From contig CANLIL010000001.1 in NCBI GenBank assembly GCA_947491305.1, positions 30,814-94,813 of the forward strand: a stretch of DNA of 64,000 nt, written 5' to 3'. Positions within the stretch are counted from its first letter, which is position 1. Every line of letters starts with the position of its first letter. Below are positions 14,685 to 52,298 of the stretch, in pieces. Made by a program: the position numbers and the translations under genes. The notes beneath the pieces are model-generated. The model searched no databases. It saw only the letters and a list, made by a program, of their open reading frames with translations, and was not told where the DNA came from. The DNA comes from Flavobacteriales bacterium. GTDB taxonomy: Bacteria; Bacteroidota; Bacteroidia; Flavobacteriales_D; Crocinitomicaceae.

Positions 14685-14686
14685 AT

Positions 14687-18819: not shown

Positions 18820-19485
18820 TTATTTCGCTTTTAACATTAAGTAAGCAGCTCCAAGTATCACAGAACCAATGATTAAAGGTTTAAAAAATGCGTGTGAAGT
18901 TGGTGTACTTTTTGGTTTTGTATAAATAGGAATTTCTTGTTCTTTTGTTGCTTGTTCGTCGCTTGTTTCATCACCACCACCGCCACCACCGACAAATCGA
19001 GGGGTAGGGGATGTTGCGTTATTCAAAGCACCGCCAAGTAAACCGCTTCCAATCAAAATACCCTCAGTGAATGTAGGAGTAGAAGAAGAAGTTGTAGTTG
19101 TTCCTGTTGATGTTGGAGTCGGTGTTGGAGTCGGTGTTGGAGTCGGTGTTGTGCTTCCTGTTACCACACCATTTCCATATTTACCCTCTGTTTGGGAACT
19201 AATAGTTGAACCTGATGAAGGGCTTGCAACAATAACATTTCCAACAGGTAAAACAGGCGTGCTAATAATAGGCGTTGGATTTCCACCGGTAGTTACAATT
19301 CCTGTTGCCATTCCTGCATTTAAAGCTGAAGCAGGAGGGGTTGGAGGGGTTGGTGATGGAGGAACAATTATATTTAAACCATCTGTTTTAAGTTTACCGT
19401 CTACGCTAATAGCGTTATTGTACCTTTGTCTTTTGATGCTTATAAATTCATCAAACTCACCGTCAAAATCTAATTTCCTTCTCAT
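18820..19485 (-). CDS. tail-anchored membrane protein, Pro/Thr-rich, with N-terminal acidic-aromatic motif
   Basis: 'LDFDGEFDEFISIKRQR', the '(TP)n' linker 'TPTPTPTPTPTPTS', a 'GGGGGD' tract, and C-terminal TM 'LIIGSVILGAAYLML'. Confidence 0.55.
   Translation of the reverse strand: MRRKLDFDGEFDEFISIKRQRYNNAISVDGKLKTDGLNIIVPPSPTPPTPPASALNAGMATGIVTTGGNPTPIISTPVLPVGNVIVASPSSGSTISSQTEGKYGNGVVTGSTTPTPTPTPTPTPTSTGTTTTSSSTPTFTEGILIGSGLLGGALNNATSPTPRFVGGGGGGDETSDEQATKEQEIPIYTKPKSTPTSHAFFKPLIIGSVILGAAYLMLKAK
19111..19150. repeat. 12-nt tandem repeat (about 3.3 copies of tgttggagtcgg) encoding the (Thr-Pro)n linker
   Basis: Read directly from the sequence: tgttggagtcgg tgttggagtcgg tgttggagtcgg tgtt. 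Confidence 0.8.
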
Positions 19486-23063: not shown

Positions 23064-23531
23064 TTAAAAGTTTTTCATTTTATCCAATGCTTCGTTTAAA
23101 TCAGACCAGTTATCATTTTCCAAAAAGCTTTCTAAATAAGATTGTAAATCTCTTTGGTACAATTGATAAAATCTGAAAGCAACATAACTAACATTTATTT
23201 TAGTTCCTGCTGATTTTATAGCCCCAACGGCTTCTTCTTCGTCGTCGTTATAAAAACTCTTTGCGTTATAAATATTATATGCCAACTGGTTAGCCTTTGT
23301 TTGACTAATAGTAACCTTTGATTTATTTTCTGAATAAGGCAAAGAAGATAAATATTGTTCTCTTCTAAATTCGTCAATGGCTCTGTCTGCTTCACGATCT
23401 TCTTTAGAATCTGTTAAGCCTACTGCATTGAATATCGGCTTAATAATACCAAAGTAAGCCAATGTAAGCGCAGCAACTCCCACAACACCAATTGCTATCC
23501 ATTTAACTGTTTCACTATTATCGTTTGGCAT
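23064..23531 (-). CDS. N-terminally anchored protein, possible annexin-like repeat
   Basis: TM 'WIAIGVVGVAALTLAYFGII'. 'NDDEEEAVGAIKSAGTKINVSYVAFRFYQLYQRDLQSYLESFL' fits DE..(L/I)(I/V).(I/L)...(S/T)......(I/V)...(F/Y)...Y...L...L (tentative). Confidence 0.3.
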   Translation of the reverse strand: MPNDNSETVKWIAIGVVGVAALTLAYFGIIKPIFNAVGLTDSKEDREADRAIDEFRREQYLSSLPYSENKSKVTISQTKANQLAYNIYNAKSFYNDDEEEAVGAIKSAGTKINVSYVAFRFYQLYQRDLQSYLESFLENDNWSDLNEALDKMKNF

Positions 23532-24297
23532 AGTCGTAGTTTTTAATAAATTTATCTAAGGTTTTGAACCTATTTAGCGTTTCAGGATTAGTTGATGCAC
23601 TTTGAAAAACATTCAGAAAAACGTTGTAAGCGTCGATTCTTGGATAGCCCAAAGCGAGGTATATTCTGAGACCGTTTATGTCTGCCTGAATTTCTGACTC
23701 AGGATTTTTATTTACGTAAAAATGACAAAACTCATGACACAAAATAGCCATTCGCATAGGAATACTCATATCCTTAAAATGGAATTTAGAAACCTCAATC
23801 CTTCCATTATCCTTACTTATTCTAGCAGGTGTAGGAAGCGGATTACCTATTTCATTTCGAATAACATCAAAATAATCAATTCTAAATTGCAGGTCGTCAC
23901 TTTTATATATGTCGCCTTTTTTTGAACAAGATAAAACGCCTGCACGCTCACAAAATTCTTGAGCAAATTTTATAAAACTTTCTGTTTTATCATTGAACCT
24001 AATTTTTTCACGATGTAGTGGTAAAACTTGTGTTTCTAATACTTTAAAAGTAGAGCCATCCTCTCCTTTTCCTTGCATATTATCATTGTTATAAACCAAC
24101 AAAAACCCTAACTCTGGTGCTTGTGGCATTCTAATGTAGAAATCTTGTCTCCCATCAATATTAGTGTATCTCTTAGTGTAAAATGTATGATTTTGATCAG
24201 CATCAGTAAATTTAATCCATAGCTTTTCTGGTTGATTGGTTTCAATCACAACTTTAAGCGTACACGGCTTTCCTCCTAATCGTTTTTCAATCAACAT
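23518..24297 (-). CDS. HExxH zinc metallopeptidase-like protein
   Basis: 'MAILCHEFCHFYVN' (HExxH). No TM segment. It is embedded in the membrane-protein cluster. Confidence 0.5.
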   Translation of the reverse strand: MLIEKRLGGKPCTLKVVIETNQPEKLWIKFTDADQNHTFYTKRYTNIDGRQDFYIRMPQAPELGFLLVYNNDNMQGKGEDGSTFKVLETQVLPLHREKIRFNDKTESFIKFAQEFCERAGVLSCSKKGDIYKSDDLQFRIDYFDVIRNEIGNPLPTPARISKDNGRIEVSKFHFKDMSIPMRMAILCHEFCHFYVNKNPESEIQADINGLRIYLALGYPRIDAYNVFLNVFQSASTNPETLNRFKTLDKFIKNYDYAKR

Positions 24298-31618: not shown

Positions 31619-34600
31619 TTACATTTTACCGAATTGTTGCTCGAAAATTTCTTGGTCTGATACAGAACCTCCTTTATCATACTTTTTTGAATCAAGTTCT
31701 CTAAGTAACGCCAAAACCTCATTGAATCGAGTAAGTTTAGATTCTCTTTCTCTTCTTAAGGCTTTTGCTTCATCTGAATCGTCACCTTCATTGTAAGTGC
31801 TTAAACGGCTACTATTTAAATCTCTTTGAAGCTTGTTAAGTTCTTTTAGTAGATTGGATTCAAGTAAGCTTGCTTTTCTAGCCTCAGTCTTATTCATAAA
31901 ACCTTTTTCCGGGTCTTCTTCTTTAATAATACCTGCTGATAATTTAGCGTGATTTACAGCATCCTCTTCCGAAACAAAAACTATAACTGTATCTTCTTTC
32001 CATCTTGGGGAACTTGAAACTACTTCCCATCTGTCAGTTTGCGTTGTAGAAGGTTGAACTTTGTAAGTAATATTAAGCTTTTCGTCTTTGAAAGTTTGAG
32101 TTTTGGTAGTTGGTGATTGCTCAACATCTTTCTTTTTACCCAAAACTTTCAAGCTAATTTCCAAGGCTTTGATACGCTTTTCAACCATAGCTTTATCTTT
32201 CGAGAAACGAAGCGAAATTTTAAGAGCTTTCAATCGTTTTTCAGTAAAGTCAACTTTGTTTATTGGTTTAGCGGTTTCAATTACCTTTTCCACTTTAGGC
32301 AGAACGTTTGTTCCCAATCCTGCGTAACTTCTATTTTCTGGTAACTGCATTCCACCGCGCTCTTCAATCAATTGTTTGATACCATCAACTTTGATGTAAC
32401 CGTCAACCTCTTTCTTAAGCATTTGGAAAGCTTCATCGCCTGTACCATAGAAATCCTCAATTACACTAATAGGAACGTAACGACCAAACTCACCGTTTTT
32501 AGCGTTATTGTCTTGGTAACGTTTCAATGCGCGTTTGATTGAGTCTTCTTTTGGAATATCCATAAACACAAGGAATACTTTATATCCTAATTTTTTCAAT
32601 CTCTTGATTAAAGGACGGTATTTCTTAACGTTACTCATTGTTCCATCGTACAACAAATCGTGCTTACAAGGTGTGTCGTAGCGATCTAAAAGCATATTCA
32701 CAACGTCTTTAGCTTCTTCATGCGTAGCAGGTGCATTCCATCCCTTATACTCTGGGAGCATTGAACGAACCTCGTCAGCGTCAATTTTCCAAATTTTATC
32801 ACTTTGCAAGTAAGGAGCATTGTTTTTTAAGAAAGTAGATTTACCACTTCCCGGTGCGCCACCCATAATAATTGCAATAGGTTCAATTTGGTCGGTACAC
32901 AAAGCATTTCCAACAAGTTTGTCGATTATTTCTTTGTGAAGTTTTTTTCTTTCTTCCGTGTATTCATAAACAACAGTTCCGTCTTCTGTTTTGATTTCTT
33001 TGCTGTTTAAGTATTTCGTTTGTGGTTGAGATTTAACACACTCGTCCAATAGCATTAATCCTTCTGAATCAATTCTAACAATTCCATTAGGATCAACAGG
33101 AGGGCACATTAAAACTTTTGGCTCAATTACTTTTGGTAAAGTAACATCGTCTAACAAGTAGTTCATTCGAGCGAAGTCCTTCACTAATTCATCAACAGAT
33201 TTTTCTTTGATTTGAAGCTTTTCTCTTTTTTCAAGAACTTCCATTACCTTTCTGTCTTTGGCTTCTTCACTAGTTAAAGAAGTTTGGCGTTTTTCAAGGT
33301 CTTCTATTTCAAATTTAACCTTTCCGATATAATCAGCAACATCCTTTTCTGGAACACGTCTTGGATCTAAGAAATCACGTTTGAAACGATCTGTATTTCT
33401 AACAGACATATTGAAATCGTCAAACCAATAAGGCTTGTAAACGCTACTATACGGGGACTGAATCATATCTTTAGGAACTGAATCATAAGACCCTTGCTTA
33501 ACATATCTTTTATCTTCATCAAGTTTTGTTCTCCAAAATTCTTGAATTGCGGAGATTTGTTCTTTTATAGGTTTATCTACGTATTTTTTTCTTACGTCTT
33601 TCAACAATTCTTTTAAATCGTCTTTTCGATACTCAATAGTTTTAATTTGCTCAATAAATCGCTCTAGTTTTTCAACATCCGCTTTTTTATCCGTAATATC
33701 CTCAGCAATTGTTTCAATATCCTCCATTAATTCCATTTCTGCAATAACGCGAGGGTTTTTAATCAATGAATACTTTAAATCTTTTGGATTAAACTCTTCT
33801 GTTTTAAGGATGTTTGTTTGACCATCAGTATCAAAAATACTATTGATACGAGAAGTTTTTTCTTCTAATTTCTGGAACATAAAAATATCAGCACTGTCAA
33901 TCATTAATGGATTAACAATACGTACATTTTTAAACGCATTTCCTTGGCGGTAAATTCTACCTTCCAATTGTTGAATATCCGTTGGGTTGAATGAAAGGAA
34001 ACAGTTGAATAACGTACTAGAATAAGCTTGCAGGTTGATACCTTCGCGAATAGTAGCACTACCAATTAATACCTTACATCTTTCTTCATCAGAAATTGGT
34101 TCTAATTCGAGTGTTTTTTTATTGAATTTTTTACCAAGGAATAAGTTTTTTACATATTCTTTTGCGTCTTCGTCACTTACACCCTTTTCGATAGGCAATT
34201 TAATTTCAGAACTGATAATTCCAACTTCATGAGGTTTAAAACCTAAATTTTCAATTAAGTATTCACGGATTAAACCAAAGAACTTAACACCTCTTTCGCT
34301 GTAAATAACAACTCCAGACATTGGTGTTTTTGTTTTTTCGTGGTGTTCTTTAATGGATCTTATGCTCTCTACTACAAAAGTAAGTTTTCCAGATGTTTCA
34401 ATAAATTGTTTCGCTGTAGGTCTTAGTAAACCTTGACCACAATCAAATAAATATGGACTGAAAGCAACATTTCTTGAATGGTTTAGAGCTAATAATAAAC
34501 GAACGCCTTTTTTCTCGTTTTCGTCCATTGCTCCTTCGTCGATTTCAACAGATTCCTCCGATTTTATTTCTTCTTCGTCTTCACCACCATTACTAGAGTT

Positions 34601-37177
34601 TGAAGAAGAACAAAGTTCATCTTTAGATATATTGCCCTCAGCATAATCTTTAATCTTTGCCATATACTCGTACTGCAAAGGAGTTAAAGGAATAACAGTA
34701 TTTACTTTTTCATTCTCAGGCAAGTCAATAACAACTCCCTCACTCTTCATTTTAGTGTAAGGAAGTACATATTTATTTGGTCTTTTTACACCAACCGATT
34801 CACCAGTTTTATGATTAATGAATTGTCTTACTAATTGTTGCAATACCAATAGGTTATTAAAACCTAATATTACTTGTTTTCTTTCTGGGTTAAGGGCGGC
34901 ATTAATTACTAATTCATAAGAAACATCAACAAATGTATCGAAGAAATTAGTTAAATTATTAAGTGTCATTTGCTCCAATCGTCTATAACCGACCATTGCC
35001 AACATGGAAAATACTTCCAATGGTGAATTGGTAAATGGAGTAGCGGTTAATAACTGCGTATTTCCTTGGAAATTATTCTGAATATATTGACAAAGCGTGA
35101 AACCTTTTATTGCGGTTGAGCTTGGTTTTCCAGAATTAATCTTATATTGTGAAGTTGCTTTCGTCGCTTTTGCTTTTCCATCGTCTTTTTTAACACTTGT
35201 ACTAGCCTCTGCTTCACCACGAACACTTGTAAATACTTTCTTACAAGCGTGTGCTTCGTCCAAACACATATAATCAAGACCTAAGTCTTCAATGTTGATT
35301 TTCGTGCCTCTAAGCGCCTTTCCTAAAAGTTCTTCTATTTCAGTATTTAACTTCAATGCTTGACGTTCTGCTTCTTTGTCTTTTAATTCAGAAGTATCTT
35401 GCATCAAAATTGATCCAATGCTAGTTTTCATTGAATTTGCTGTATCATCATTAAAACCAAGGTTCAACATACCTTCATAAGTCATAATGGTTACAGAACC
35501 TTCATCAACCAAAAGCGTATTTCCGTTTGTGTCTTGGAAATCTTCAATAACAGAATCATTTAGGTTGTATAGCTTATTGATTTTAATATGTCCAGCAAAC
35601 TTTTTAAACTCTGAAATCCATTGTTTGTAAGTTTGATTTGGAACGATTACTACAGGACGTTTTGACCAACCTAAGTCAATGAAAGCACTTATAGTAAATA
35701 TTGCTGACGGCGTTTTTCCAACCCCAACATCAAATGCTAATAACCCAGAGCCATTACTTAAAGTAAAGGCAACGGCTTCGCGTTTTTCGAAACGAACATC
35801 ACTTGGTTGTCCGTCGATAAATTTATTCATTCTAAATCCTACCGGGATTTTGTTGTAATTGATAGCTACATTGTTATTGAAAGTCATGTTCCATTCCGAC
35901 TCAATGCGAATTTTGTCGTTTTGCAACAACATTTTATCAATGAAAATAGCAAATAAACGATCTCCCTCTTGCTTAGATTTGGATTTCATACGCTCAAAAG
36001 CAGCGTCTTCTTTCTGTTTAATTTTTAAGTTTTCACCTGTATATCTACCATCATAATCTTTTTCAGCAGAAGTTTTTGGTTTCTGTTTAGCGAAAACATA
36101 GTAGTTTATAATATCAGCATAAGAAATACCCTTTTTAAATTGAATAGTTTTATCAGTAACCATCCAATAACAGAAAGCATCGCGTAAATTAAGCTGATCG
36201 TATGTCGTTTTTTTCCAGTCACTGTAGTATTTGGTGTCCAAGAAATCCATTTGACCATAGCGCTTATCCGAAGAAGCAGAAATTTGTTTCCATTTAAACG
36301 TAGCTTCATCAGACAATGTTTTTATATAGAAATTTTTTGCAAAATTAGAGTTAGGCAAAAGCTTAAGGCTGTTTTTGTCGCTACTATTTATAACTAAACG
36401 CTTAGCATATTGCATGTCAAAAACTTTCTTGATTTCTTCAATTTGTCTTTGCAATGCTTTTTCACCGTATTTTTCAACGATGTAATCAGCGTCTTCGCCT
36501 ACATTCTCAACACCATCAACTTTTCTTACTCTTGAATTTTTACGGTAAACGTCTCCGGATAAATATAACCATGCAGGCTCAATTTCTTTTGTAATACCAT
36601 TATAAAAAACTAATCCTTTTTCATACCAGTCTTTTATTTTTTCTTCGTAGTTATTGTTTCCAGACATCAACATAGAAGGAGTAGTTCCTGCTATCTCGAA
36701 CCATTCCATGTTTGTTACAGGCTTAGATATTTGGTTACAATGCCATAAGAACACTTGTAATTCTTCTTTGGAAACTTCTGGGTTTATTTCATTGAAAACC
36801 TCTTGTAGAGACCTTGTTTCAATACCTTCCATGCTTGATTCAGCAGGCTTATTCGATTTCTTAAGTTTTTTGTAGTCGCGATTGATTTTTAATTCAACAT
36901 CAGACTTCGATTTAGAAAGCGCATTTTCGATATTGTCAATTTGCTCAACGTCTTTATCTGTAAGGTCAATTATATCAACGGTTTTAGAAGAAACCAAAGG
37001 GTCGTCATAATTTACTGCTGTAAGATAAGCAATTGCATTGATTCTGTCAAGATCAGCTAATGATCCTTTATACAAAGTAATTGATTTACCAAATTTGCTT
37101 TTACCTTCTTTTTGTTCAGCTAAAATATTGTCTGGGTTTTCTTTAAAATATAACCCGTTTGCAAAAATATTCTTCAT
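31619..37177 (-). CDS. giant polyvalent protein: N-terminal unknown region, SNF2/DEAD-like helicase and zeta-toxin-like P-loop kinase domain
   Basis: Helicase motifs 'FDVGVGKTPSAI' (I), 'MCLDEAHACKK' (II), 'LLTATPFTNSPLEVFSML' (III) and 'QLEGRIYRQGN' (VI). The C-terminal region has 'IIMGGAPGSGKSTFLKN..IDADEVRSMLPEY..LLYDGTMSN..GRYVPISV', which is zeta-toxin/AAA_33-like. Confidence 0.7.
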   Translation of the reverse strand: MKNIFANGLYFKENPDNILAEQKEGKSKFGKSITLYKGSLADLDRINAIAYLTAVNYDDPLVSSKTVDIIDLTDKDVEQIDNIENALSKSKSDVELKINRDYKKLKKSNKPAESSMEGIETRSLQEVFNEINPEVSKEELQVFLWHCNQISKPVTNMEWFEIAGTTPSMLMSGNNNYEEKIKDWYEKGLVFYNGITKEIEPAWLYLSGDVYRKNSRVRKVDGVENVGEDADYIVEKYGEKALQRQIEEIKKVFDMQYAKRLVINSSDKNSLKLLPNSNFAKNFYIKTLSDEATFKWKQISASSDKRYGQMDFLDTKYYSDWKKTTYDQLNLRDAFCYWMVTDKTIQFKKGISYADIINYYVFAKQKPKTSAEKDYDGRYTGENLKIKQKEDAAFERMKSKSKQEGDRLFAIFIDKMLLQNDKIRIESEWNMTFNNNVAINYNKIPVGFRMNKFIDGQPSDVRFEKREAVAFTLSNGSGLLAFDVGVGKTPSAIFTISAFIDLGWSKRPVVIVPNQTYKQWISEFKKFAGHIKINKLYNLNDSVIEDFQDTNGNTLLVDEGSVTIMTYEGMLNLGFNDDTANSMKTSIGSILMQDTSELKDKEAERQALKLNTEIEELLGKALRGTKINIEDLGLDYMCLDEAHACKKVFTSVRGEAEASTSVKKDDGKAKATKATSQYKINSGKPSSTAIKGFTLCQYIQNNFQGNTQLLTATPFTNSPLEVFSMLAMVGYRRLEQMTLNNLTNFFDTFVDVSYELVINAALNPERKQVILGFNNLLVLQQLVRQFINHKTGESVGVKRPNKYVLPYTKMKSEGVVIDLPENEKVNTVIPLTPLQYEYMAKIKDYAEGNISKDELCSSSNSSNGGEDEEEIKSEESVEIDEGAMDENEKKGVRLLLALNHSRNVAFSPYLFDCGQGLLRPTAKQFIETSGKLTFVVESIRSIKEHHEKTKTPMSGVVIYSERGVKFFGLIREYLIENLGFKPHEVGIISSEIKLPIEKGVSDEDAKEYVKNLFLGKKFNKKTLELEPISDEERCKVLIGSATIREGINLQAYSSTLFNCFLSFNPTDIQQLEGRIYRQGNAFKNVRIVNPLMIDSADIFMFQKLEEKTSRINSIFDTDGQTNILKTEEFNPKDLKYSLIKNPRVIAEMELMEDIETIAEDITDKKADVEKLERFIEQIKTIEYRKDDLKELLKDVRKKYVDKPIKEQISAIQEFWRTKLDEDKRYVKQGSYDSVPKDMIQSPYSSVYKPYWFDDFNMSVRNTDRFKRDFLDPRRVPEKDVADYIGKVKFEIEDLEKRQTSLTSEEAKDRKVMEVLEKREKLQIKEKSVDELVKDFARMNYLLDDVTLPKVIEPKVLMCPPVDPNGIVRIDSEGLMLLDECVKSQPQTKYLNSKEIKTEDGTVVYEYTEERKKLHKEIIDKLVGNALCTDQIEPIAIIMGGAPGSGKSTFLKNNAPYLQSDKIWKIDADEVRSMLPEYKGWNAPATHEEAKDVVNMLLDRYDTPCKHDLLYDGTMSNVKKYRPLIKRLKKLGYKVFLVFMDIPKEDSIKRALKRYQDNNAKNGEFGRYVPISVIEDFYGTGDEAFQMLKKEVDGYIKVDGIKQLIEERGGMQLPENRSYAGLGTNVLPKVEKVIETAKPINKVDFTEKRLKALKISLRFSKDKAMVEKRIKALEISLKVLGKKKDVEQSPTTKTQTFKDEKLNITYKVQPSTTQTDRWEVVSSSPRWKEDTVIVFVSEEDAVNHAKLSAGIIKEEDPEKGFMNKTEARKASLLESNLLKELNKLQRDLNSSRLSTYNEGDDSDEAKALRRERESKLTRFNEVLALLRELDSKKYDKGGSVSDQEIFEQQFGKM

Positions 37178-37178
37178 A

Positions 37179-37409
37179 TCAATCTGGAATATAGTTTGGA
37201 TTTAATTCTGTTTCTACTTGAGAAATAGCTGTTGATATAGAGATACCTTCGTTTGCGACGAAAGAAACTATTCTATCTACAATTTTTATTTTGTCGTTTG
37301 TGTTTTCCAACAAAGGGCACAAATACGGCGTGTCGGTTGGGTTGCAAAAAGAAAGCTCAATATCAATAGCTTCTTTTAATTTGATTACTTTTTCCTGAAT
37401 TGAATCCAT
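37179..37409 (-). CDS. hypothetical protein
   Basis: 76-aa ORF ending 2 nt before the giant gene starts. Confidence 0.45.
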   Translation of the reverse strand: MDSIQEKVIKLKEAIDIELSFCNPTDTPYLCPLLENTNDKIKIVDRIVSFVANEGISISTAISQVETELNPNYIPD

Positions 37410-37572
37410 TACTTTAAGTTTAAGTTGCTAAATTACTGAAAAATTAGTACTTGTAAATATAATTTTTTTTACAGTTGTTAAAAAATAATCACAAAAAAAA
37501 ATCGACTAACCTAAGCTAACCGATTTTCGAGAGAGAGAAACTGTTTCTAGTTTTCGATAATTACATTTTAAT

Positions 37573-37812
37573 TTAAGCTCTTATTTTTTCTAAGACATAG
37601 TTTATGTCTAAACCAAATTCAGCTAAATTAACAGGTTTTGAACATAATCCTCCGTTTGAGCCTTCGAAGATGAAGGTTGCTTTTGTTGGATCTTGGTTGT
37701 CGTATTCAATTTTTGTCATAGTGTCAACCTTGACATTAATTTCTTTGAGCTCTATTGGTTCTGCAATAAAACCACCTTTTCTTTCAGCGATTACGGATGT
37801 TGTTACTTTCAT
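37573..37812 (-). CDS. hypothetical protein
   Basis: 79-aa ORF. Confidence 0.45.
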   Translation of the reverse strand: MKVTTSVIAERKGGFIAEPIELKEINVKVDTMTKIEYDNQDPTKATFIFEGSNGGLCSKPVNLAEFGLDINYVLEKIRA

Positions 37813-37833
37813 TTTTTTTATTGGTTTTTAAAT

Positions 37834-38208
37834 TTAGTTTTCTTTTTGAATTTCTTCAAGGATTTTACCTAAGTCAATACCCCTTTTTTTAAACCCTTCT
37901 ATTTCTGTTGGTGTAATAATGAAACTACCCGGAATAGCACCAATAAGAACAAAGTTTTCTTCAAATAGTTGGTATTGATTAAGGAAGTTTTCTTGGTTCA
38001 TAATAACAACTTGTCCGTCTTCTTCTGAAATAAAATCTGTTATGTCAATTTCATAACTGCTTTCTTCAGTCTGTTTAATGAATAGTTTATTATCTTTTAA
38101 AAAAACTTCATTGTTCAAAAATTCTTTTATTTTTTCAAAGTTTTCGCCTGTCCATTGAATTGCTTTAATACGCTCAGGATTTTTAAGGTAGGATGATGAT
38201 TCGTTCAT
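37834..38208 (-). CDS. hypothetical protein
   Basis: 124-aa acidic ORF. Confidence 0.5.
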   Translation of the reverse strand: MNESSSYLKNPERIKAIQWTGENFEKIKEFLNNEVFLKDNKLFIKQTEESSYEIDITDFISEEDGQVVIMNQENFLNQYQLFEENFVLIGAIPGSFIITPTEIEGFKKRGIDLGKILEEIQKEN

Positions 38209-38251
38209 GTTATTTTTTTTATTGGTTATTTAAAGTTGTTGTTTGAGTTTT

Positions 38252-39652
38252 TTAAGTATTAAATTTTTTCCACATCGGATAAAAATAGCTTCTAACTTGA
38301 CCTTGCAAGTAATCCATTACATCCTCAGCTTCATCGTCAACTAACTCCTCGTACATTTCTCTTTTGTAATCAGCGTCATTTTCCTTTCCGTAATGCTTAG
38401 CAACGGCGGTTAAAAGCAAATCACTGTCTTCGTCTGTTAGTTTACTAAGGAATAACTTATTTCTTTGACCATTGTTAGTTGCTTCTGTTTTAGACTCAGG
38501 CGTTTCGGTAGTTTTGATTTCAGCTACATTCTCAATAAACCTATCCTCTTCTTTTTCTCCACCGTTTTTCTTTAAAACAATAATATCACTCGTAACACCA
38601 GTGCGCTCAAATGTTGTATCAGGCAAGCGATAAGCTTCTAATAATTTACAATTATCATTTAAGTATTCTTTTACAGGCGTAACATCGCCATCTAAGAACA
38701 TCATACCACCATTTCTAACCTCCGCACCAATTATCATCACCATTAATCCACCCGGCTTCAATAAGTCCATTCCACGACGCAAGAAATACTCAACATAGTT
38801 GCGAGCATCGGTAAAATCCTTTTCTCCAAAGCCTAACAAATAACGTGCTGCATTCGGATCAAGCGCATCAAAACTTCCATAAGGACAGTTACCAATTACT
38901 ATATCAAATTTTTCAAGCTTGTCAACTTTGCCTCTAATTGTATTGTTTTTATTGATAAATACAGTTTCAAAAGGCGTTAATTTTACATCACAGAAAGGGT
39001 ATAAAATTTTAGTGATAATTGCGCTATATTCGTTTATTTCGTAAGCAACACATCTAGCCTCTGGATTAGCATAAGCAAGAAACTCACCTGTTCCAACAGA
39101 CGGCTCTAAAACAGAATGCTCCCCTTTATATCCATGCTTGTAAGCCAAAGCCCACATTTTTTCAATTACTTTTTTAGGAGTAAAGAACTCGAATAAAGAA
39201 CCAATTGAAAGCTCACCGTATTTACCCAAACCACCATAACCAGTATAGTTTTTGATAAACATTTTTTCTTCCAAGCTATATTCTCTCGAATCAACATTAG
39301 TAAAAGAACCAACGTTGTCTTTAATCCACTTTTCAATTCCCTTATTTAGTTCGTATGGATTGTTGTAATCGTCGATGTTTAAACTGATTTTAGTATTAGT
39401 TTCGGATGCAACACCACCACCATCTGCAAACTTACCTCTTCTTTGCATATCCAAAGCAATTGCAACAGCTTGTTTCTGAGGGTAACCTTCATTGACCAAT
39501 ACAGAAATCTTTTCGCTTACCATAGCTTTGTCATTTTCTGAAATTTCGCCACCTCTAGCTAAAATATTTGGAACATTTGGGTTATTTGCTCCCATCGTTT
39601 GAACTAATTTTGCGTTCATATCGTACAATTTATTTACTTTATCTACTTCCAT
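38252..39652 (-). CDS. N6-adenine DNA methyltransferase-like protein (polyvalent-module associated)
   Basis: Motif I 'VLEPSVGTGEFLAY' and motif IV 'VIGNCPYGSF' (NPPY variant). The N-terminal 'PQKQAVAIALDMQRRGKFADGGGV' ends in the same poly-Gly junction seen in the neighbouring giant proteins. Confidence 0.65.
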   Translation of the reverse strand: MEVDKVNKLYDMNAKLVQTMGANNPNVPNILARGGEISENDKAMVSEKISVLVNEGYPQKQAVAIALDMQRRGKFADGGGVASETNTKISLNIDDYNNPYELNKGIEKWIKDNVGSFTNVDSREYSLEEKMFIKNYTGYGGLGKYGELSIGSLFEFFTPKKVIEKMWALAYKHGYKGEHSVLEPSVGTGEFLAYANPEARCVAYEINEYSAIITKILYPFCDVKLTPFETVFINKNNTIRGKVDKLEKFDIVIGNCPYGSFDALDPNAARYLLGFGEKDFTDARNYVEYFLRRGMDLLKPGGLMVMIIGAEVRNGGMMFLDGDVTPVKEYLNDNCKLLEAYRLPDTTFERTGVTSDIIVLKKNGGEKEEDRFIENVAEIKTTETPESKTEATNNGQRNKLFLSKLTDEDSDLLLTAVAKHYGKENDADYKREMYEELVDDEAEDVMDYLQGQVRSYFYPMWKKFNT

Positions 39653-39653
39653 T

Positions 39654-39839
39654 TCATTTATACTTAAAGGTTGACATTATTGGTTCGCATCTGCTAATTT
39701 GCCATTCTTCTTTTAGCGCATTTTTCAACTGCATTTTCATATACTGAGCCATTTCTGTTTTTGTCATGTTCTCACTTGACATCTGAAACTCTACAGTAAT
39801 TGTTCCAGTTATTTTTTTTCTTGTTTTAGATGCTGGCAT
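39654..39839 (-). CDS. hypothetical small basic protein
   Basis: 61-aa ORF with a -7 box 14 nt upstream. Confidence 0.45.
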   Translation of the reverse strand: MPASKTRKKITGTITVEFQMSSENMTKTEMAQYMKMQLKNALKEEWQISRCEPIMSTFKYK

Positions 39840-39852
39840 AACTATTTTTTTT

Positions 39853-39860
39853 CAAATTTA
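39853..39860 (-). promoter_or_regulatory. candidate -7 box TAAATTTG (minus strand)
   Basis: Forward caaattta, upstream of the ATG at 39839. Confidence 0.35.
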
Positions 39861-39888
39861 GTGTAAAAATATTATTAATTTGTCAATC

Positions 39889-42800
39889 TTATTTTTTAAA
39901 CCTACCAAGAATTTTATTGCAATCAATTTCAACTCCATTATTATCCATAGAATTGAGCTCTGAAACGATTTCACATGGAGTTAAATCTTTTCCTTCAAAC
40001 TCAAACTTTTCTGTTTCAGAACTGCTAAATTTATTTACCACCAATTCTCCACCCTCAATCTCTATGTTTTGCCCGGTTGACTTAACTACCAAAGGAATAC
40101 CACCCTCTGAGTGTGGCGGCCCTTCCGCCAAGCCTCCCAACGCAAGAATTTTTTCGGCTGTTTTTTTGATTTTGATACCATCAATAATACTATCGTAATC
40201 AGACATTGAAAGTTCTTTGTCTTTCAGCTTTAATAAGTTTTCAGTTAAAAAATGAATTTGAGCGTCGTTATCAACATCTTCGCGTATATACTCAAACAAG
40301 CGAATTAATAAAGGCACGTTGATTGTTAGTGTGTCCGTTTCATTAACATCAACATGGTTGTTTTCGATATTCACATAAGGCACTCCTTCAAAATTATCAA
40401 CCGACAAATATTTTGATTTATTAATCTCGGAGATCATATAAGGTTTAACTTTTGTTTTAACACCTTTTCCTTTACCTCTATTCCATGAGTCAATTACTGT
40501 TACACAAACAGGATAATAAGGTACTTCTAATTCAATCAAAGCATTTAATCTATGATTTCCCTCTGTTAGCAATAACTTACTTTCATTTCTAATGTAGTTA
40601 AGTATCAAAGGTTCTGTTATACCATTTTCAATAAAGGACTTTTTAATGTTTTCAATATTTTTGGCGCTGTCGTCCAATGAGTATTTTGGATCATTACGTC
40701 GATTAAACTCACTACACTTTACTAAAAAGCTTATTGGAACAAGCAAAATATTAATATCAGACCATCTTTTGTCAAGACTGATAGCTATTTTACCTTTATT
40801 TGAGTTGAGTGTGTGAGAAGATTTAGCAGCAACTCCACCTCCACCAGCTAATTTTTTTTTATTTTTTTCTTGATCAAACAAATTAATGTAGTTTTCAATA
40901 TAAATTCTACCACCATAATACTCAAAGTCAATGTAAAAACCTTTTGAATTTTCTTTTACTTTAATCCAATTAAATCTATAATCATCTCCGAATGTATCAA
41001 TATTTATAAACTTAATTTTTTCATTTGAAAAATCAAACAATGCTTCACTTTCAAAATATCTTTTGTTATAAGATGGGTTATTTGCATAAATTTTTAATTT
41101 AACTATTGGGAAATTATCATTAACCCCACCGCCACCACCAAAAGTTTCGCTTTCTTTTTTCATTTCGTTATTTTTATTAATTGTAATAATTTCATTGTCA
41201 TAAGCACTTTCAACTTCTTTTTTAAAGTCTCTTTTCAAAATGCCATTTATTTTATCCGATTTATCGAAATCAAATTTTTCCATTACATAGAGTAAATCAT
41301 ATTGACCATAAGTTCCGAACCTAAGAAGTTTTACTCTCATGCTCCAATTAGCTTGATCCTTTTCTGATTGAATGTTACTCCAATCGTTGAAAACTTTATT
41401 GAGAGTTTCTCCGCTGCCGAAATTATTAACTACGTGAATGTAATTATCAGGAATACCACCACCATTTTTCATTTTCAGTTCGTTTGAATCTATTTTTGAA
41501 GCTTTACCCCCCATTACAGCGCTGTAAACACGAGCCATAGCCCATTGTTCTTTTGATTTAACAGTTGGTCTCACACTACTTGGATTTGTTTTGAATGCAC
41601 CAATACCTTTATTGTAAATTTGCTGTAACCCTTTCAGCGAAACACGCGTATCTTTTGAAATTTGCTCTAAATTATGAGAAGTGGATGTTGGATAGCCAAA
41701 TTTTTTATTGTATTTATCTTTAAAACTTACAAAACCACCGCCTTCATAACGGATGTCTGGGTTGTTTGTGTCGAAGTTTCCATTGTTTCCTACCGCAGAC
41801 TTTATTTGATTGGGTTTAAAAACAACATAAGTAGTAGCAAATAATTCATCCTTTAAAAAATCTACAGCAGAGCCCAAGTCTTTTACGTTTTTAACAATAA
41901 GACCATCTTTATTATGTTTTTTTGCGATTGAAATAAAATCGTTTATGTGCTTATGTTTTTCTCCAATAGAGTTAAAATTGGTAAATCCTGCATCTACAAT
42001 AAGAGGGTCTTGTAAACTTAAAAAAACAGGCATTATATTAGCGTTTTCTTTAAAAAAAACACCTGATTTAATCTGTTTTGGTGTTGGAGTTAAGTTTTTA
42101 TAAATGTATGTTTCTGCAACTGAAATACTATCAGTAAAAAAAATACCTTCTTTACTAACCCCTCTTCTTTTCGTATCTTCATCATTTGAGAAAACATTAA
42201 AGTCGTGTGTAGTGGCGTGTAAAACTACCAAAGGTTCTCCATTTTCGTCAACCGCTTTACTAACTCCTTCTTCTAATCTTTTTAATGATACCTCGTCAAT
42301 TCCAGAATCATTTATTTTAGTTAATGCAAGTTTCTCCCAGTCGCCGAAAAATTTTTTAAAGAAATCGCCTCTCACAAGTTTGTATTGCTCTGGATTTAGG
42401 TTACTTGGTTTACCGTTGGGTGCAAGTAAAGCAGGAACACCGCCGCCTTCATCAAAACGAATATCAGGATTGCTCGCATCAAACGTTGTGTTTGTGCCGT
42501 CAGTAAGTTTTATTTGGTTAGGTTCAAAAACGACTATTTCATTAAAGTATTGAATTTGATTTTCATGATTTATGTCTGGTTTTTCGTAAATATTAATCCT
42601 ATTTATAACTACTCCATCAAAATCATTTCTTATTAATAATTCTTGAAATCCATAGTCTGAAAAATATTTTGTGATTGCTTTTGAAGGTCTATAATCGTCT
42701 TTGAAAGTATTATTTAAAAAGTCTTTATCTAAATCCGATAAACCTTCAAGTCCTTTATAATTAATTATTGATTGCTCTGATAGTTTTTCCCAATTAAGCT

Positions 42801-43665
42801 CAATAATAAATGGGTTCATTATTTTCAGAAAAACAGGCATTACTATTCGGTTATTTTCTGATTTAAGTGTATAGTACTTTGCTGTTCCAAAAGAAGATGT
42901 AAAATAGAATCCAGCTCCAAAATCGCCAAATCCTGTTTTTGTATTCTGAAATTCTTTATCAAAAATTGTAAATATAGAATTTGTTCCATGGTAGCAAATT
43001 AACGGCTCTCCGTTCTCGTCAACTACTTTAGAAACATTAGATAAATTTTCAATAATATTATTTGTAATATCCAAAATCTTTCTATCTTTGCATAGAGCAT
43101 TCTGATTTGCACGATATGACGGTTTAGCATGTACGGTTTTCAGGATGCTTTCTTTTTCTACAACCCCTGTATCATGTATTATTAAATCACCATCGTTCTC
43201 TTCTTGAACGGTGATTCGATAAATATATTCAACTCCTTCAAAGATGAAGTTAGATATGTAAACCCAAAACTTTTTAATATTTGGTTTTAAGTCTAGTTTA
43301 CGATTAGCTTCTTCTTCTATTTTTATTGCATTTTCTAATATTTCAGGAAGGTAGTCAATAGAAGAAAATAAAACATCAGGTCTAGCATGTCTGCAAATAT
43401 GTTTTAATCCACTTCTGCTTAATTGAATATTGTTCCCGTCCTTATCTATTTTAAATAAACTATGAAGTTTAATATATGATTTCTCATAATCAAAGTTTCT
43501 TTCTTTGTGATTATTCACAATAGTAATTGGCTTATTCAATAAATTTAGAATATTTGCTTTTTCAAAATTTCCAAACCACGCTATAAACTCAGGAGTTCTC
43601 ACCAATTTGTATTGCTCAGGAGTAAGGTTGCTTGGCTTTCCGTTTGGTGCTAATAATTGTGTCAT
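39889..43665 (-). CDS. giant polyvalent protein: two ART-PolyVal-like (ADP-ribosyltransferase-fold) modules, ParB/Srx-like nuclease domain and C-terminal 'GPPHSEGG' module
   Basis: Duplicated leader 'LLAPNGKPSNL(T/N)PEQYKLVR..(F/W)FG(N/D)(F/W)EK'. 'VDENGEPLICYHGTNSIFTIFD..GAGFYFTSSFGTAKYY..MPVFLKIMNPFII' and 'VDENGEPLVVLHATTHDFNVFS..EGIFFTDSISVAETYIY..MPVFLSLQDPLIV'. 'LLLTEGNHRLNAL' is ParB-like. Modules are separated by GGG(G)(V/I) tracts. Confidence 0.6.
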   Translation of the reverse strand: MTQLLAPNGKPSNLTPEQYKLVRTPEFIAWFGNFEKANILNLLNKPITIVNNHKERNFDYEKSYIKLHSLFKIDKDGNNIQLSRSGLKHICRHARPDVLFSSIDYLPEILENAIKIEEEANRKLDLKPNIKKFWVYISNFIFEGVEYIYRITVQEENDGDLIIHDTGVVEKESILKTVHAKPSYRANQNALCKDRKILDITNNIIENLSNVSKVVDENGEPLICYHGTNSIFTIFDKEFQNTKTGFGDFGAGFYFTSSFGTAKYYTLKSENNRIVMPVFLKIMNPFIIELNWEKLSEQSIINYKGLEGLSDLDKDFLNNTFKDDYRPSKAITKYFSDYGFQELLIRNDFDGVVINRINIYEKPDINHENQIQYFNEIVVFEPNQIKLTDGTNTTFDASNPDIRFDEGGGVPALLAPNGKPSNLNPEQYKLVRGDFFKKFFGDWEKLALTKINDSGIDEVSLKRLEEGVSKAVDENGEPLVVLHATTHDFNVFSNDEDTKRRGVSKEGIFFTDSISVAETYIYKNLTPTPKQIKSGVFFKENANIMPVFLSLQDPLIVDAGFTNFNSIGEKHKHINDFISIAKKHNKDGLIVKNVKDLGSAVDFLKDELFATTYVVFKPNQIKSAVGNNGNFDTNNPDIRYEGGGFVSFKDKYNKKFGYPTSTSHNLEQISKDTRVSLKGLQQIYNKGIGAFKTNPSSVRPTVKSKEQWAMARVYSAVMGGKASKIDSNELKMKNGGGIPDNYIHVVNNFGSGETLNKVFNDWSNIQSEKDQANWSMRVKLLRFGTYGQYDLLYVMEKFDFDKSDKINGILKRDFKKEVESAYDNEIITINKNNEMKKESETFGGGGGVNDNFPIVKLKIYANNPSYNKRYFESEALFDFSNEKIKFINIDTFGDDYRFNWIKVKENSKGFYIDFEYYGGRIYIENYINLFDQEKNKKKLAGGGGVAAKSSHTLNSNKGKIAISLDKRWSDINILLVPISFLVKCSEFNRRNDPKYSLDDSAKNIENIKKSFIENGITEPLILNYIRNESKLLLTEGNHRLNALIELEVPYYPVCVTVIDSWNRGKGKGVKTKVKPYMISEINKSKYLSVDNFEGVPYVNIENNHVDVNETDTLTINVPLLIRLFEYIREDVDNDAQIHFLTENLLKLKDKELSMSDYDSIIDGIKIKKTAEKILALGGLAEGPPHSEGGIPLVVKSTGQNIEIEGGELVVNKFSSSETEKFEFEGKDLTPCEIVSELNSMDNNGVEIDCNKILGRFKK

Positions 43666-44258
43666 TAATTTAATTTTTTATCAATTTGTGAACCTATTTT
43701 TGAATAAATAGGGAGATTTGAATGTGGGTCTTTTACTTTACCGATTGCAGGTTCAATTATTTCAACGCCTAAATCTTTGAATATGTCATAATAGGCATTT
43801 ACTTTTGATTCAGTAATGTATTTATTTCCACCCCAACCCCAAGAACCTTTTACTGCAAATAATAATGCGTTAGGGAATTTTTCTTTTACACTACTAACTA
43901 ATCCATCAATATCTTCTTTTGAATTAAATCCACCATTTGTTCCGATATTAATTATAATTGAATTTACATCTTTTGAAACAGGATAATCGTCAACGGCACT
44001 TTTTAACCAAGACAAACTTTTACCACCTTCCCACAAACTTTCTTTACCACCTTTTTCGTTAATTCTTTTGGCTTTTTCCGAGTTCTTGTCTATGAATGGG
44101 GTTTGACTATCACCTATTATATAATTCTTTTCTTTATCAGTACCTCTTTTGCTTGATTTACCACTTTTTCTTCTGTGTCTAACAACTAATACCGTTGTTA
44201 GACCAAGAATAACAACACCAACGATACTGAATAAAATTATTTTTTGAGTTCTATTCAT
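43665..44258 (-). CDS. N-terminally anchored SGNH/GDSL-like hydrolase (divergent)
   Basis: TM 'IILFSIVGVVILGLTTVLVV', with 'YIIGDSQTPF' (block I), 'INIGTNGG' (block III-like) and 'VKDPHS' (block V-like). Confidence 0.45.
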   Translation of the reverse strand: MNRTQKIILFSIVGVVILGLTTVLVVRHRRKSGKSSKRGTDKEKNYIIGDSQTPFIDKNSEKAKRINEKGGKESLWEGGKSLSWLKSAVDDYPVSKDVNSIIINIGTNGGFNSKEDIDGLVSSVKEKFPNALLFAVKGSWGWGGNKYITESKVNAYYDIFKDLGVEIIEPAIGKVKDPHSNLPIYSKIGSQIDKKLN

Positions 44259-44980
44259 TTTACTTTTTTAATTGTTTCATAAACTTTTTCTGCAACTATT
44301 TTGTGCCCGGCAACAGTTGGATGAATACCATCAGTGGTTTTACTTTGAAGGTCGTAGGGATTAATGAAGTTTACCCCCTTTATTTGATTAGGAAGTAAGC
44401 GCTGTAGTTCCTTTCTTTTTTGAACGTATGGAATCCATTGTTCTTTTTTAGTCAACAAGTTTGCAGGGCGGCCAACAGGCATAATGTTTATGTCACCAAA
44501 CTTACCTTGAATCTTATAACCTAGATTAATAAATACATCAGCACCATTGTTTTTAGCGAGATCGACCATTTCCTGAATGTTCTTAATTGTAGTTGATAAT
44601 GGAATACTCGCGTTCGATGTGTCGTTACCACCTCCATGAATAATAACACGGTCGTATTTCTTTGATTTAAGTTTAGCAGGAAGGTTTTTCTTCATCCAAT
44701 CGGTTGTTTTACCACCCAAGGCAAGAACGTCGATTGAAACACCTTTATTCGATAATTTTTCTCGAAGGATGTTTGGATAAGTGTAGGTAATTTTTCCACC
44801 ACTTGAATTAACAACGGCTACTTGACTATCACCAACAAAAAGTATTTTTTTAGGATTCTTGTTTTTTATCCGGGCAGAATTTAATCGCTTGTGTAAAAAA
44901 TAAAACAAGGAAAACAATCCAATAGCAGAGGCAACACCAATGGCGCTATAAACTATAATTTGCTTTGTATTTTTGTTCAC
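44255..44980 (-). CDS. N-terminally anchored SGNH/GDSL esterase
   Basis: TM 'IIVYSAIGVASAIGLFSLFYFL', with 'ILFVGDSQVAV' (I), 'ALGGKTTDW' (II), 'IIHGGGNDTS' (III) and 'TDGIHPTVAGH' (V). Confidence 0.7.
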   Translation of the reverse strand: MNKNTKQIIVYSAIGVASAIGLFSLFYFLHKRLNSARIKNKNPKKILFVGDSQVAVVNSSGGKITYTYPNILREKLSNKGVSIDVLALGGKTTDWMKKNLPAKLKSKKYDRVIIHGGGNDTSNASIPLSTTIKNIQEMVDLAKNNGADVFINLGYKIQGKFGDINIMPVGRPANLLTKKEQWIPYVQKRKELQRLLPNQIKGVNFINPYDLQSKTTDGIHPTVAGHKIVAEKVYETIKKVK

Positions 44981-51973: not shown

Positions 51974-52298
51974 TGAAAAATATTTAGAAAGAATTGAGTT
52001 TTTCAAACAAAAACAAAAAGAACTTAATGAACTTAAATCAAAATTAAGAGAATCCTACATTCAAGCAAATCGACCTTGTAACATAGGAGACACCGTCAAA
52101 ATTATTTCTTTTGGAGGTAAAGAATATATTGGAGAGGTTGTTTCTTTCTCTTTATTTGATACTGATGTCTTTATAGACTGCATTAAGTCCGGAAATAATA
52201 AAGCATATCAAACTAAACCTCAAAAAAGCGTTGAGGTAATTTCCAAGGCAACAACAATTCAAGAAAATAAACAAGAGGTAGAGGATGTCGAAAATTAA
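51966..52298 (+). CDS. hypothetical protein
   Basis: 110-aa ORF overlapping both neighbours. Confidence 0.5.
   Translation: MTSEKYLERIEFFKQKQKELNELKSKLRESYIQANRPCNIGDTVKIISFGGKEYIGEVVSFSLFDTDVFIDCIKSGNNKAYQTKPQKSVEVISKATTIQENKQEVEDVEN

Follow-up and report, generated by a model that had tools for sequence, protein, structure and literature searches.

A block of polyvalent proteins with exchangeable modules in an uncultured freshwater phage

Do three very large proteins encoded side by side in an uncultured freshwater phage enter the next host together with the genome, and what kind of particle would carry them? These questions are raised by a block of minus-strand genes at positions 31619-43665 of a 64,000-nucleotide stretch (hereafter, the window, meaning the whole stretch) of contig CANLIL010000001.1 (positions 30,814 to 94,813 of the forward strand; GenBank assembly GCA_947491305.1, Flavobacteriales bacterium). 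The carrier, known from a lake-type metagenome contig, is a phage of ~100 kb, copies of which reach 101.8 kb. The block comprises three large and three small open reading frames (ORFs), all located where a preliminary description of this DNA had placed them, and a 61 amino acid (aa) ORF that the description had not listed. The large genes encode a 1258-aa protein with ADP-ribosyltransferase (ART) modules, an N6-adenine DNA methylase of 466 aa, and a 1852-aa protein in which an SNF2 motor is joined to a kinase resembling zeta toxins (Table 1). We assign the three products to the polyvalent proteins, and estimate at about 0.6 the probability that they form an arsenal of modules joined at glycine runs that is packaged and enters the next host with the genome.

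The domain repertoire of polyvalent proteins includes ART, SNF2, N6-adenine methylase, zeta-like kinase, DdrB-type ParB and LPD domains; those of phages typically adjoin late virion genes, and DarB, DdrB and Alt are packaged (PMC5512222). The preliminary description had placed the block in this class and had named profile searches as the check. The placement was borne out, as ART-PolyVal and LPD3 scored above their Pfam cut-offs, DarB-like PHROG families were matched, the domains belong to the catalogued set, and the modules are shuffled among relatives. Within the 2-15 domains per polypeptide by which the class is recognised fall both the nine modules of the 1258-aa protein and the SNF2 and zeta-type kinase combination of the 1852-aa protein. 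All of the domains named beforehand received Pfam support with the exception of ParB, and the LPD domain found is LPD3.

Module structure of the three large proteins

The search of the 1258-aa protein against Pfam returned ART-PolyVal in two stretches (E 5.8e-45, 154 bits versus a cut-off of 31), as anticipated from the HGT/HAT and FYFTS/IFFTD motifs, together with LPD3 at residues 74-160 (E 1e-15, 58 bits versus 27) and DUF5824 (E 1e-10). Five runs of at least three glycines occur in this protein, at residues 407, 642, 735, 843 and 941; the mean for shuffled sequences was 0.37, and none of 5000 shuffles reached five. The runs coincide with boundaries found independently from phmmer and blastp segment matches in 118 relatives, and segment matches in the same 118 were used to count how often each module occurs. 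Glycine junctions of the same type are present in the methylase (residue 78) and in the P/Q-rich protein of 360 aa encoded at 29495-30577.

Both ART modules are framed by stereotyped flanks. The flank at the start has the pattern LLAPNGKPSNLTPEQYKLVRT..F..WFGDWE..ASKVVDENGEPLV.YHG (LLAPNGKPSNL..ENGEPLV.YHG) and is encoded by a 60-nt direct repeat (42370-42429 and 43597-43656, 82% identity). The flank at the end reads NQIKLADG.NTTFD..NPDIR[FY]xxGG, and 305 end junctions of the form IR[FY]x(1-3)GG were found in 120 relatives. The first module carries the motifs CYHGT, FYFTS and VFEPNQ in an H..Y..E arrangement, and the second VLHAT, IFFTD and VFKPNQ (H..F..K), with lysine in place of the glutamate of the first. 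Judging from the H-Y-E pattern, this glutamate would occupy the catalytic position.

Beyond the DUF5824 module lie modules 5 and 6, which recur as separate units in 9/118 and 6/118 relatives, respectively, and gave no Pfam match at E<=0.01. The C-terminal region had been described as a single unassigned module; its HSEGGIP motif is present, but the region consists of two separately mobile modules rather than one. Module 8, three helices in the AlphaFold model described below, stands alone in 38/118 relatives. Module 9, in which a histidine, a GG pair and two glutamates are invariant, occurs in 48/118 at N-terminal, internal or C-terminal positions. Neither gave a Pfam match or a credible PDB sequence match. 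When a profile of the SHxEGGIP module was compared with the PDB, the best match was a Rab GTPase (E 0.0028), which was judged spurious, with GroES and Pvc16 at 0.14-0.29. Eight segments without a domain assignment returned nothing credible in Pfam at E<=1.

The seventh module had been taken for a ParB/Srx-type domain from its EGNHR motif, a reading that fold comparison and PHROG upheld and Pfam did not. The ParB_N match fell below threshold (E 0.11, 13 bits versus 26.3), and ParB-like PHROG families matched at 2.8e-5. Residues 946-1258 were modelled with AlphaFold (AF2) from an alignment of the relatives' module segments (pLDDT 84.5), and the top 50 Foldseek matches in the PDB all belong to the ParB/Srx superfamily (sulfiredoxin, Noc, ParB, KorB, SbnI, serine kinase and Osa). 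Sulfiredoxin (PDB code: 6ky4) was matched with a probability of 1.0 and a TM-score of 0.63. Since the best E-value was 4.2e-3 and none reached E <= 0.001, the ParB assignment is supported at the level of fold and not by a strong score.

The 466-aa protein matched N6_Mtase (E 1e-13) and Eco57I (E 2e-10), in accord with the NCPY motif on which its description as a methylase had been based. A short N-terminal module (QAVAIAL) precedes its GGG junction, and the methylase core follows, with PSVGTGEF at residue 184 and NCPY at residue 255. The SNF2 and zeta-type domains reported for the 1852-aa protein were likewise recovered. SNF2-rel_dom was matched at residues 436-647 (E 1.4e-11), and ResIII and Helicase_C weakly; the motifs GVGKT, DEAH and GRIYRQGN begin at residues 485, 640 and 1073, and an insert of roughly 380 aa lies ahead of the C-terminal lobe. 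The Walker A motif of the kinase (GAPGSGKST, residue 1440), expected near 32841-32870, was found at nt 32834-32860, and IDADE follows at residue 1465. No credible Pfam match at E<=1 was obtained for the first 340 aa of the SNF2 protein or for residues 80-150 of the methylase; LPD36 was not matched in the Pfam scan, and no search was aimed at that domain. No epsilon or PezA-type antitoxin was found among the neighbours with Pfam and PHROG, so that the zeta module appears to be kinase-like but not part of a toxin-antitoxin (TA) module.

The methylase and the SNF2 protein match the same long fused PHROG families, namely phrog_1685 (2278 aa, with methylase at 63-337 and helicase at 727-1196), phrog_11801 and the DarB-like phrog_10089; for the 1852-aa protein the E-values are 1e-67 with phrog_1685 and 1.6e-28 with the DarB-like antirestriction family phrog_10089. 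These shared matches identify the methylase and the motor as the two halves of a DarB-type methylase-helicase dyad that is split into two genes ~1 kb apart, and the methylase-SNF2 neighbourhood is conserved in two related loci (L002/L003). The pair could conceivably belong instead to a phage-borne defence or exclusion system resembling DISARM, BREX or MADS, with the zeta module as a toxin or addiction module protecting a lysogen. PADLOC indeed returned DrmD on the C-terminal helicase lobe (1.2e-10) and mad2 on the methylase (9e-16), and a tyrosine integrase in a relative makes lysogeny possible. These matches are, however, partial and far weaker than those to the DarB-like PHROGs; no DrmA, DrmB, DrmC, PLD, DUF1998, PglZ or epsilon antitoxin was found among the neighbours; and the zeta module shares one polypeptide with the SNF2 motor here and is carried in ART polyvalent proteins elsewhere. 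With matches so weak and partial, and with the partner genes missing, the DISARM/BREX-type reading was rejected, and we hold it to be very improbable.

Relatives and cassette exchange

More than 2300 metagenomic relatives of the 1258-aa protein carry the same modules in other orders, combining 2-8 ART modules with DUF5824, Zeta_toxin, GNAT, NUDIX, RelA_SpoT, RadC, N6_Mtase, ParB and Topoisom_I. The zeta module of the 1852-aa protein is also present inside an ART polyvalent protein (P0038), and a methylase of the type found in the window forms the C-terminus of another (P0118), which indicates that the three genes draw on one pool of modules. In more distant genomes (contigs of 118-141 kb), clusters of 3-5 giant polyvalent genes are accompanied by a GDSL lipase and an SNF2 protein.

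Exchange of modules could be followed at the DNA level in the syntenic relative (protein P0005, loci L002/L003), which is 70% identical. The gene order in L002 is lipase, 1279-aa ART protein, 395-aa methylase, small ORFs, a 2335-aa protein with SNF2, Zeta and RelA_SpoT, and VRR-NUC. The DNA is 82-92% identical in blocks that are broken exactly at five sites: the cores of ART1 and ART2, the 61-aa ORF, the C-terminus of the methylase together with two of the small ORFs, and that of the SNF2 protein. At the last of these the SNF2 orthologues, 92% identical over residues 1-1685, diverge. Window positions 38534-37576 have no counterpart in L002, and at the position of the 61-aa ORF no DNA similarity is detectable there; a 61-aa ORF is called elsewhere in L002, beyond its methylase gene. 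The core of ART1 in the window is 93.5% identical to residues 1322-1522 of another relative (P0002), where it occupies a different position. The breaks at the ART cores and the recurrence of the ART1 core in P0002 show directly that cassettes have been exchanged between conserved flanks: ART cores and terminal modules are exchanged between related genomes, and the flanks are kept at the DNA level. The exchange seen between two related genomes should be useful for studying how phage anti-defence genes diversify.

The three small ORFs, for which no function could be assigned earlier, gave no Pfam match at E<=1e-3; the 124-aa product has a sub-threshold match to PhaC_N (E 0.0045, 17 bits versus 23.7). 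Comparison of the block with 50,697 phage records by megablast gave no match, and no related locus was confirmed by an IMG/VR search with the 1852-aa protein. No paper describing this lineage or DUF5824 was found in the literature.

Two further features of the related genomes were observed. A tyrosine integrase is encoded upstream of the block in L002 (5423-6226), with none at the corresponding place in the window, a difference suggesting that temperate members exist. A fourth protein of polyvalent type (858 aa), matching Pfam LPD1 and phrog_18947 (1.9e-66), is encoded at 16661-19237 of locus L007, ~6.7-9.2 kb past the left end of the window; it is well away from the main block, and the relative L009 conserves it.

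Table 1. Features of the block and of its surroundings (positions in the window; residue numbers refer to the encoded protein)
Feature	Position	Strand	Remarks
Conserved beta-sandwich protein, capsid-protein candidate	26088-26816	-	242 aa; AF2 pLDDT 60, beta-rich core
FtsK-HerA-type ATPase, candidate genome-packaging ATPase	27164-27973	-	269 aa; 3.6 kb downstream of block; N-terminal Walker A
P/Q-rich protein	29495-30577	-	360 aa; GGGGV junction at aa 106; syntenic in L002
VRR-NUC / PD-(D/E)xK nuclease	31131-31616	-	161 aa; directly downstream of block; phrog_824 and a Holliday-junction-resolvase phrog; syntenic in L002
SNF2 + zeta-toxin-like P-loop kinase protein	31619-37177	-	1852 aa, 212 kDa
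Its variable C-terminal tail, aa ~1686-1852	31622-32122	-	No Pfam match; similarity to relative breaks here
Its zeta-toxin-like kinase, aa 1425-1600	32378-32905	-	Pfam Zeta_toxin E 5.8e-28, 98 bits vs cut-off 22
Its SNF2 motor core, aa 436-1100	33878-35872	-	SNF2-rel_dom, ResIII, Helicase_C; GVGKT, DEAH, long insert, GRIYRQGN
Small ORF, 76 aa	37179-37409	-	Abuts SNF2 gene; counterpart in L002
Small ORF, 79 aa	37573-37812	-	Variable
Small ORF, 124 aa	37834-38208	-	Variable; matches PHROGs of unknown function
N6-adenine DNA methylase	38252-39652	-	466 aa
61-aa ORF	39654-39839	-	Between ART protein and methylase genes; no Pfam/PHROG family match
Polyvalent protein, nine modules with poly-Gly junctions	39889-43665	-	1258 aa, 143 kDa
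Module 9, aa 1171-1258	39892-40155	-	Small, beta-rich; G.SHxEGGIP..TGQ.IE[IV]EGGE; HSEGGIP at aa 1185
Module 8, aa 1099-1170	40156-40371	-	~70 aa, helical; ..PLLIRLFEYIREDV..D.QIH..
Module 7, aa 946-1098	40372-40830	-	ParB/Srx-fold domain; EGNHR at aa 1035
Modules 5 + 6, aa 738-846 and 847-945	40831-41454	-	Bounded by GGG, GGGGG, GGGG
Module 4, aa 645-737	41455-41733	-	DUF5824; in 55/118 relatives
Module 3, aa 411-644	41734-42435	-	Second LLAPNGKPSNL flank + ART-PolyVal #2; phrog_30335 aa 413-640
Module 2, aa 206-410	42436-43050	-	ART-PolyVal #1; Pfam aa 216-395
Module 1, aa 1-205	43051-43665	-	LLAPNGKPSNL N-flank motif + LPD3; rare, 3/118 relatives at >=60% coverage
Two N-terminally membrane-anchored SGNH/GDSL-type hydrolases	43665-44980	-	197 + 241 aa; directly upstream of ART gene; anchors by transmembrane prediction

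Gene neighbourhood, delivery and the carrier element

The block is co-oriented with, and directly upstream of, a row of genes for an ATPase, a beta-sandwich protein, membrane proteins, fibres and lysins. This row, headed by the ATPase, is presumed to be a late morphogenetic module, and the shared orientation points to delivery of the block proteins with the DNA. In such a scheme the block would be transcribed late, together with the presumed morphogenetic genes, and its products would be built into the particle to reach the next host along with the genome. There the SNF2 motor might track the incoming DNA for the methylase to modify it and shield it from restriction, as has been proposed for DarB of phage P1. 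The ART modules could ADP-ribosylate host targets in the manner of T4 Alt, the zeta-type kinase could phosphorylate a peptidoglycan precursor or another nucleotide-sugar, and the ParB/Srx module may bind or nick DNA. The glycine junctions would serve as flexible linkers or as cleavage sites from which modules are released.

Several points weigh against this scheme. Packaging and late expression are both deduced from the position and orientation of the genes. A terminator-like hairpin with a T-run (37497-37528, minus strand) lies in the 163-nt gap between the 79- and 76-aa ORFs and separates the methylase group from the SNF2 gene, so that the block may not be a single transcript; a second long hairpin of this kind (27078-27108, minus strand) is found just past the ATPase gene. 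The second ART module is without the motif glutamate seen in the first, and so may be inactive or differ in its chemistry. If the particle is tailless, we know of no route by which proteins of 140-210 kDa could be delivered. Finally, Pfam and PHROG revealed no MuF or portal fusion in the three proteins and no peptidase family, including the zincin metallopeptidase (MPTase) described in 2017 as the processing hub of the class (PMC5512222), a feature that is frequent but not universal there. The sole HExxH candidate is ORF 23518-24297 (minus strand), 7 kb away, with a SprT-like match at E 0.097. This ORF encodes 259 aa with an HEFCH motif, and its SprT-like and M48 matches are sub-threshold; it is possible that it represents a candidate stand-alone zincin peptidase that processes the polyvalent proteins.

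The same enzymes might act only inside the producing cell, unpackaged, and serve host takeover and self-protection by methylating progeny DNA, ADP-ribosylating the host RNA polymerase as T4 ModA/ModB do, and blocking cell-wall synthesis. Packaging is not demonstrated by the sequence, and the missing MuF, portal and MPTase fusions and the hairpin inside the block would fit such a role, as would the region at the upstream border, where a helix-turn-helix (HTH) regulator and a D12 methylase may be early genes. A DarB-type dyad, however, has to be there at entry if it is to protect DNA in cis (PMC5512222), the block is contiguous and co-oriented with the presumed morphogenetic genes, and a role in structure or entry is favoured by the conserved membrane-anchored hydrolases and by the giant polyvalent clusters of relatives. 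A purely intracellular function is in our judgement unlikely, and packaging with delivery to the next host remains the preferred reading.

The hydrolase genes in question immediately precede the ART gene, the start of which is overlapped by the stop of the 197-aa ORF. The 241-aa product matches Lipase_GDSL and is syntenic in L002; the 197-aa product, which has no family match of its own, appears SGNH-like by resemblance to this neighbour. A GDSL lipase also lies within the polyvalent cluster of a distant relative (L012). On the downstream side, the 161-aa nuclease gave tblastn matches to phage VRR-NUC nucleases, and the 360-aa P/Q-rich protein, without a family match in Pfam or PHROG, is possibly a further member of the polyvalent set.

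Repeats and regulatory signals were also surveyed. A 25-nt repeat at 37802-37826, 38203-38227, 39802-39826 and 44253-44277 overlaps four minus-strand genes at their starts; read on the coding strand, it approximates AACCAATAAAAAAAAT..ATG, an initiation region that is rich in A and has no Shine-Dalgarno sequence, of a kind associated with Bacteroidota. The Bacteroidetes-type promoter pattern was uninformative (7 matches versus 5.3 expected), a sigma-70 scan gave 85 matches versus 73 expected, and nothing was found in Rfam and tRNA scans.

What carries the block is a phage with lysis genes for a GH19 lysin, an amidase with PG_binding, DUF2272 and SLT. A conjugative element was ruled out, as no type IV secretion system (T4SS) or relaxase family was found in the Pfam and PHROG scans and several lysins and fibre proteins are present. 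The fibre or beta-helix proteins (431, 806 and 467 aa; 10783-16090, minus strand) were noted for shared sequence features: the 431- and 806-aa proteins have the N-terminal motif Y..TDTSADW..V.N.TYF.DK...LV..K..SG in common, and two of the three end in (Q/Y)GNILI. Among cultured phages, tblastn with two concatenated sets of unassigned context proteins gave only a partial fibre match and the VRR-NUC matches, so the structural candidates have no cultured relative.

Whether the particle is tailless and contains a membrane had been left as a condition in the preliminary description. In favour are the ATPase, the beta-sandwich gene paired with it, a row of single-transmembrane (single-TM) proteins, and the lack of terminase, portal and HK97-type genes; a capsid fold could not be added to these. 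The search for genes of tailed phages covered the 64-kb window, 10 kb past its left end (L007) and 7.3 kb past its right end (L004), and was extended by ~10 kb through the relative L009, the anchor protein of which is 79% identical. In these ~91 kb (~81 kb own and ~10 kb from the relative) of ~102-104 kb, terminase, portal, HK97 capsid and tail families were all without a match.

The ATPase matches phrog_2666, 'terminase large subunit' (5.6e-6), and belongs to a family of about 500 clusters, all roughly 270-300 aa in length. The family profile gave weak matches in the PDB, to HerA (2.7e-4) and to B204 of STIV2 (8e-4) and STIV (2e-3). The match to B204, a packaging NTPase, lies in the non-P-loop region, and 21/42 family members match Pfam DUF87, the HerA central domain. 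For the 242-aa beta-sandwich protein, more than 1600 homologous clusters were found at E<=1e-3, and among the best 120 (57-97% identity) none has a Pfam domain. It was not called a capsid protein, since Foldseek against the PDB and BFVD returned only generic beta-sandwich or jelly-roll-like folds (TM-score 0.2-0.3). A paralogous copy of its domain was observed in a 320-aa protein (8844-9806, minus strand; hmmsearch 6e-29 with the identical L007 copy) that adds an N-terminal domain and a C-terminal TM segment; this may represent another capsid protein, or one of a vertex or spike.

The ATPase gene precedes the beta-sandwich gene in 5/5 distant loci from metagenome-assembled genomes (L013-L017, 38-45% identity), which are binned to Gammaproteobacteria, Opitutia, Chlamydiales, Sediminibacterium and Ignavibacteria. 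The pair probably forms the core of a virus lineage that has yet to be described, and no polyvalent cluster lies within 10 kb upstream of it in these five loci. Between the ATPase region and the lysins of the window, ~20 ORFs with a single N- or C-terminal TM segment form one co-oriented row (3388-25460, minus strand). Together with the ATPase and the beta-sandwich gene, this row resembles the morphogenetic modules of tailless membrane-containing phages. Described bacterial members of that group have genomes of roughly 10-45 kb, several times below the ~100 kb here.

The carrier may nonetheless be an ordinary tailed phage, in which the structural genes are too divergent to be recognised or fall in the remaining ~11-13 kb, with the polyvalent proteins packaged in the head and injected by way of the tail, like those of P1. 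Every polyvalent protein on record so far stems from a portal-terminase phage or a conjugative element (PMC5512222), and weak ART matches occur in tailed phages (F116, crAss-like and Dickeya jumbo phages). The 431-aa fibre protein, as query, matches a cyanophage 'putative tail fiber protein' across 6% of its length (E 7e-24), the 242-aa protein has no established capsid fold, and part of the genome was unseen and part inferred from the 79%-identical relative. Against a tailed particle stand the missing signals of terminase, portal, HK97 fold, tail tube, sheath and tape measure in Pfam and PHROG across the ~91 kb, and the window has no ORF of at least 300 aa left over as a TerL or portal candidate. 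Moreover, the sole packaging-type ATPase is short, of FtsK-HerA type and without a nuclease domain, single-TM ORFs fill the presumed structural region, and the unseen stretch falls in a recombination and anti-defence region. We lean slightly towards a particle other than that of a classical tailed phage, and regard a tailed one as a substantial possibility.

Other genes of the carrier and its relatives deserve mention. A C5 cytosine DNA methylase of 756 aa (52285-54555, plus strand; DNA_methylase 7.7e-59) is interrupted by a LAGLIDADG homing-endonuclease intein (Intein_splicing 1.6e-11), an arrangement kept in L002. A short topoisomerase IB of eukaryotic/poxvirus type is also present (223 aa; 4237-4908, minus strand; Pfam Topoisom_I 1.5e-20), and the Topoisom_I domain forms part of an ART polyvalent protein in a relative (P0014). 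Anti-defence genes elsewhere in the genome or its relatives include a Tad2-like domain (E 5.8e-4), Sequestin and Tad3 (L004 1116-1607, L009 19233-21107).

The protein class was described in 2017 (PMC5512222), and the block is a clean and richly modular further example of it. Its main interest lies in the cassette structure, in the widespread modules and, foremost, in a possibly non-tailed carrier. The unannotated ones among these modules, namely the two between DUF5824 and ParB, the helical one of 70 aa and the SHxEGGIP module, are candidates for new activities. It is a tentative and rather doubtful proposition that the block represents the first polyvalent arsenal in a non-tailed lineage, with genomes of ~100-140 kb, probably an internal membrane, and packaging by an FtsK-HerA ATPase; such a lineage appears to be abundant in metagenomes, freshwater and marine (Tara) included. 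Were it true, proteins of 140-210 kDa, or fragments released at [FY]xxGG, would be kept in the viral membrane or beneath it and would enter the cytoplasm with neither a portal nor a tail as conduit, for which, to our knowledge, no precedent has been described. The stereotyped flanks would then provide an inbuilt means of swapping ART warheads by recombination. In a ~100-kb non-tailed phage with a membrane, the polyvalent strategy would not be tied to a portal and tail or to type IV secretion, and the carriage and release of very large proteins would become an experimentally approachable question.

Comparison with known systems

The block shares with the polyvalent proteins of Iyer, Burroughs, Anand, de Souza and Aravind (2017, PMC5512222) the domain repertoire, the presumed adjacency to virion genes and extensive module shuffling. 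It differs from them in that no zincin MPTase, MuF, portal or ArdC-N domain is present in cis, the methylase-helicase dyad is divided between two genes, and the carrier is without a portal-terminase system in the parts examined.

With the tailless membrane-containing viruses of STIV B204 and PRD1 P9 type, the carrier has in common a short ATPase with an N-terminal Walker A motif and a profile matching HerA/B204. The E-values for the ATPase are, however, only 1e-3 to 1e-4, and a jelly-roll capsid protein is unconfirmed here.

Among individual domains, the ParB/Srx module is like its superfamily (P1 DdrB-type ParB, plasmid Osa, sulfiredoxin, Noc and KorB) in its exclusive fold match and D/E-G-x-H-R motif, but lies below the Pfam ParB_N threshold and is not followed by an HTH or dimerisation domain. 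The Zeta/PezT toxins, UDP-GlcNAc kinases of type II TA systems, have their counterpart in a module that scores 98 bits with Zeta_toxin and conserves the Walker A and D-x-D motifs; here, in contrast, it sits towards the C-terminus of an SNF2 protein of 212 kDa and has no epsilon antitoxin beside it.

T4 Alt is a single-domain ART of R-S-E type, whereas the 1258-aa protein holds two tandem ART-PolyVal modules of H-Y-E-like type, one without the glutamate, within a series of nine; the likeness is to an ART that is thought to act on host proteins at entry. P1 DarB is one polypeptide of about 2255 aa. In the window the corresponding functions are divided between two genes, separated by three small ORFs; a zeta-type kinase is fused to the motor, and packaging, which of these two systems has been shown for DarB only, is predicted. 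Common to both systems is an N6-adenine methylase coupled with an SNF2-type ATPase, and both halves in the window match the PHROG annotation 'DarB-like antirestriction'.

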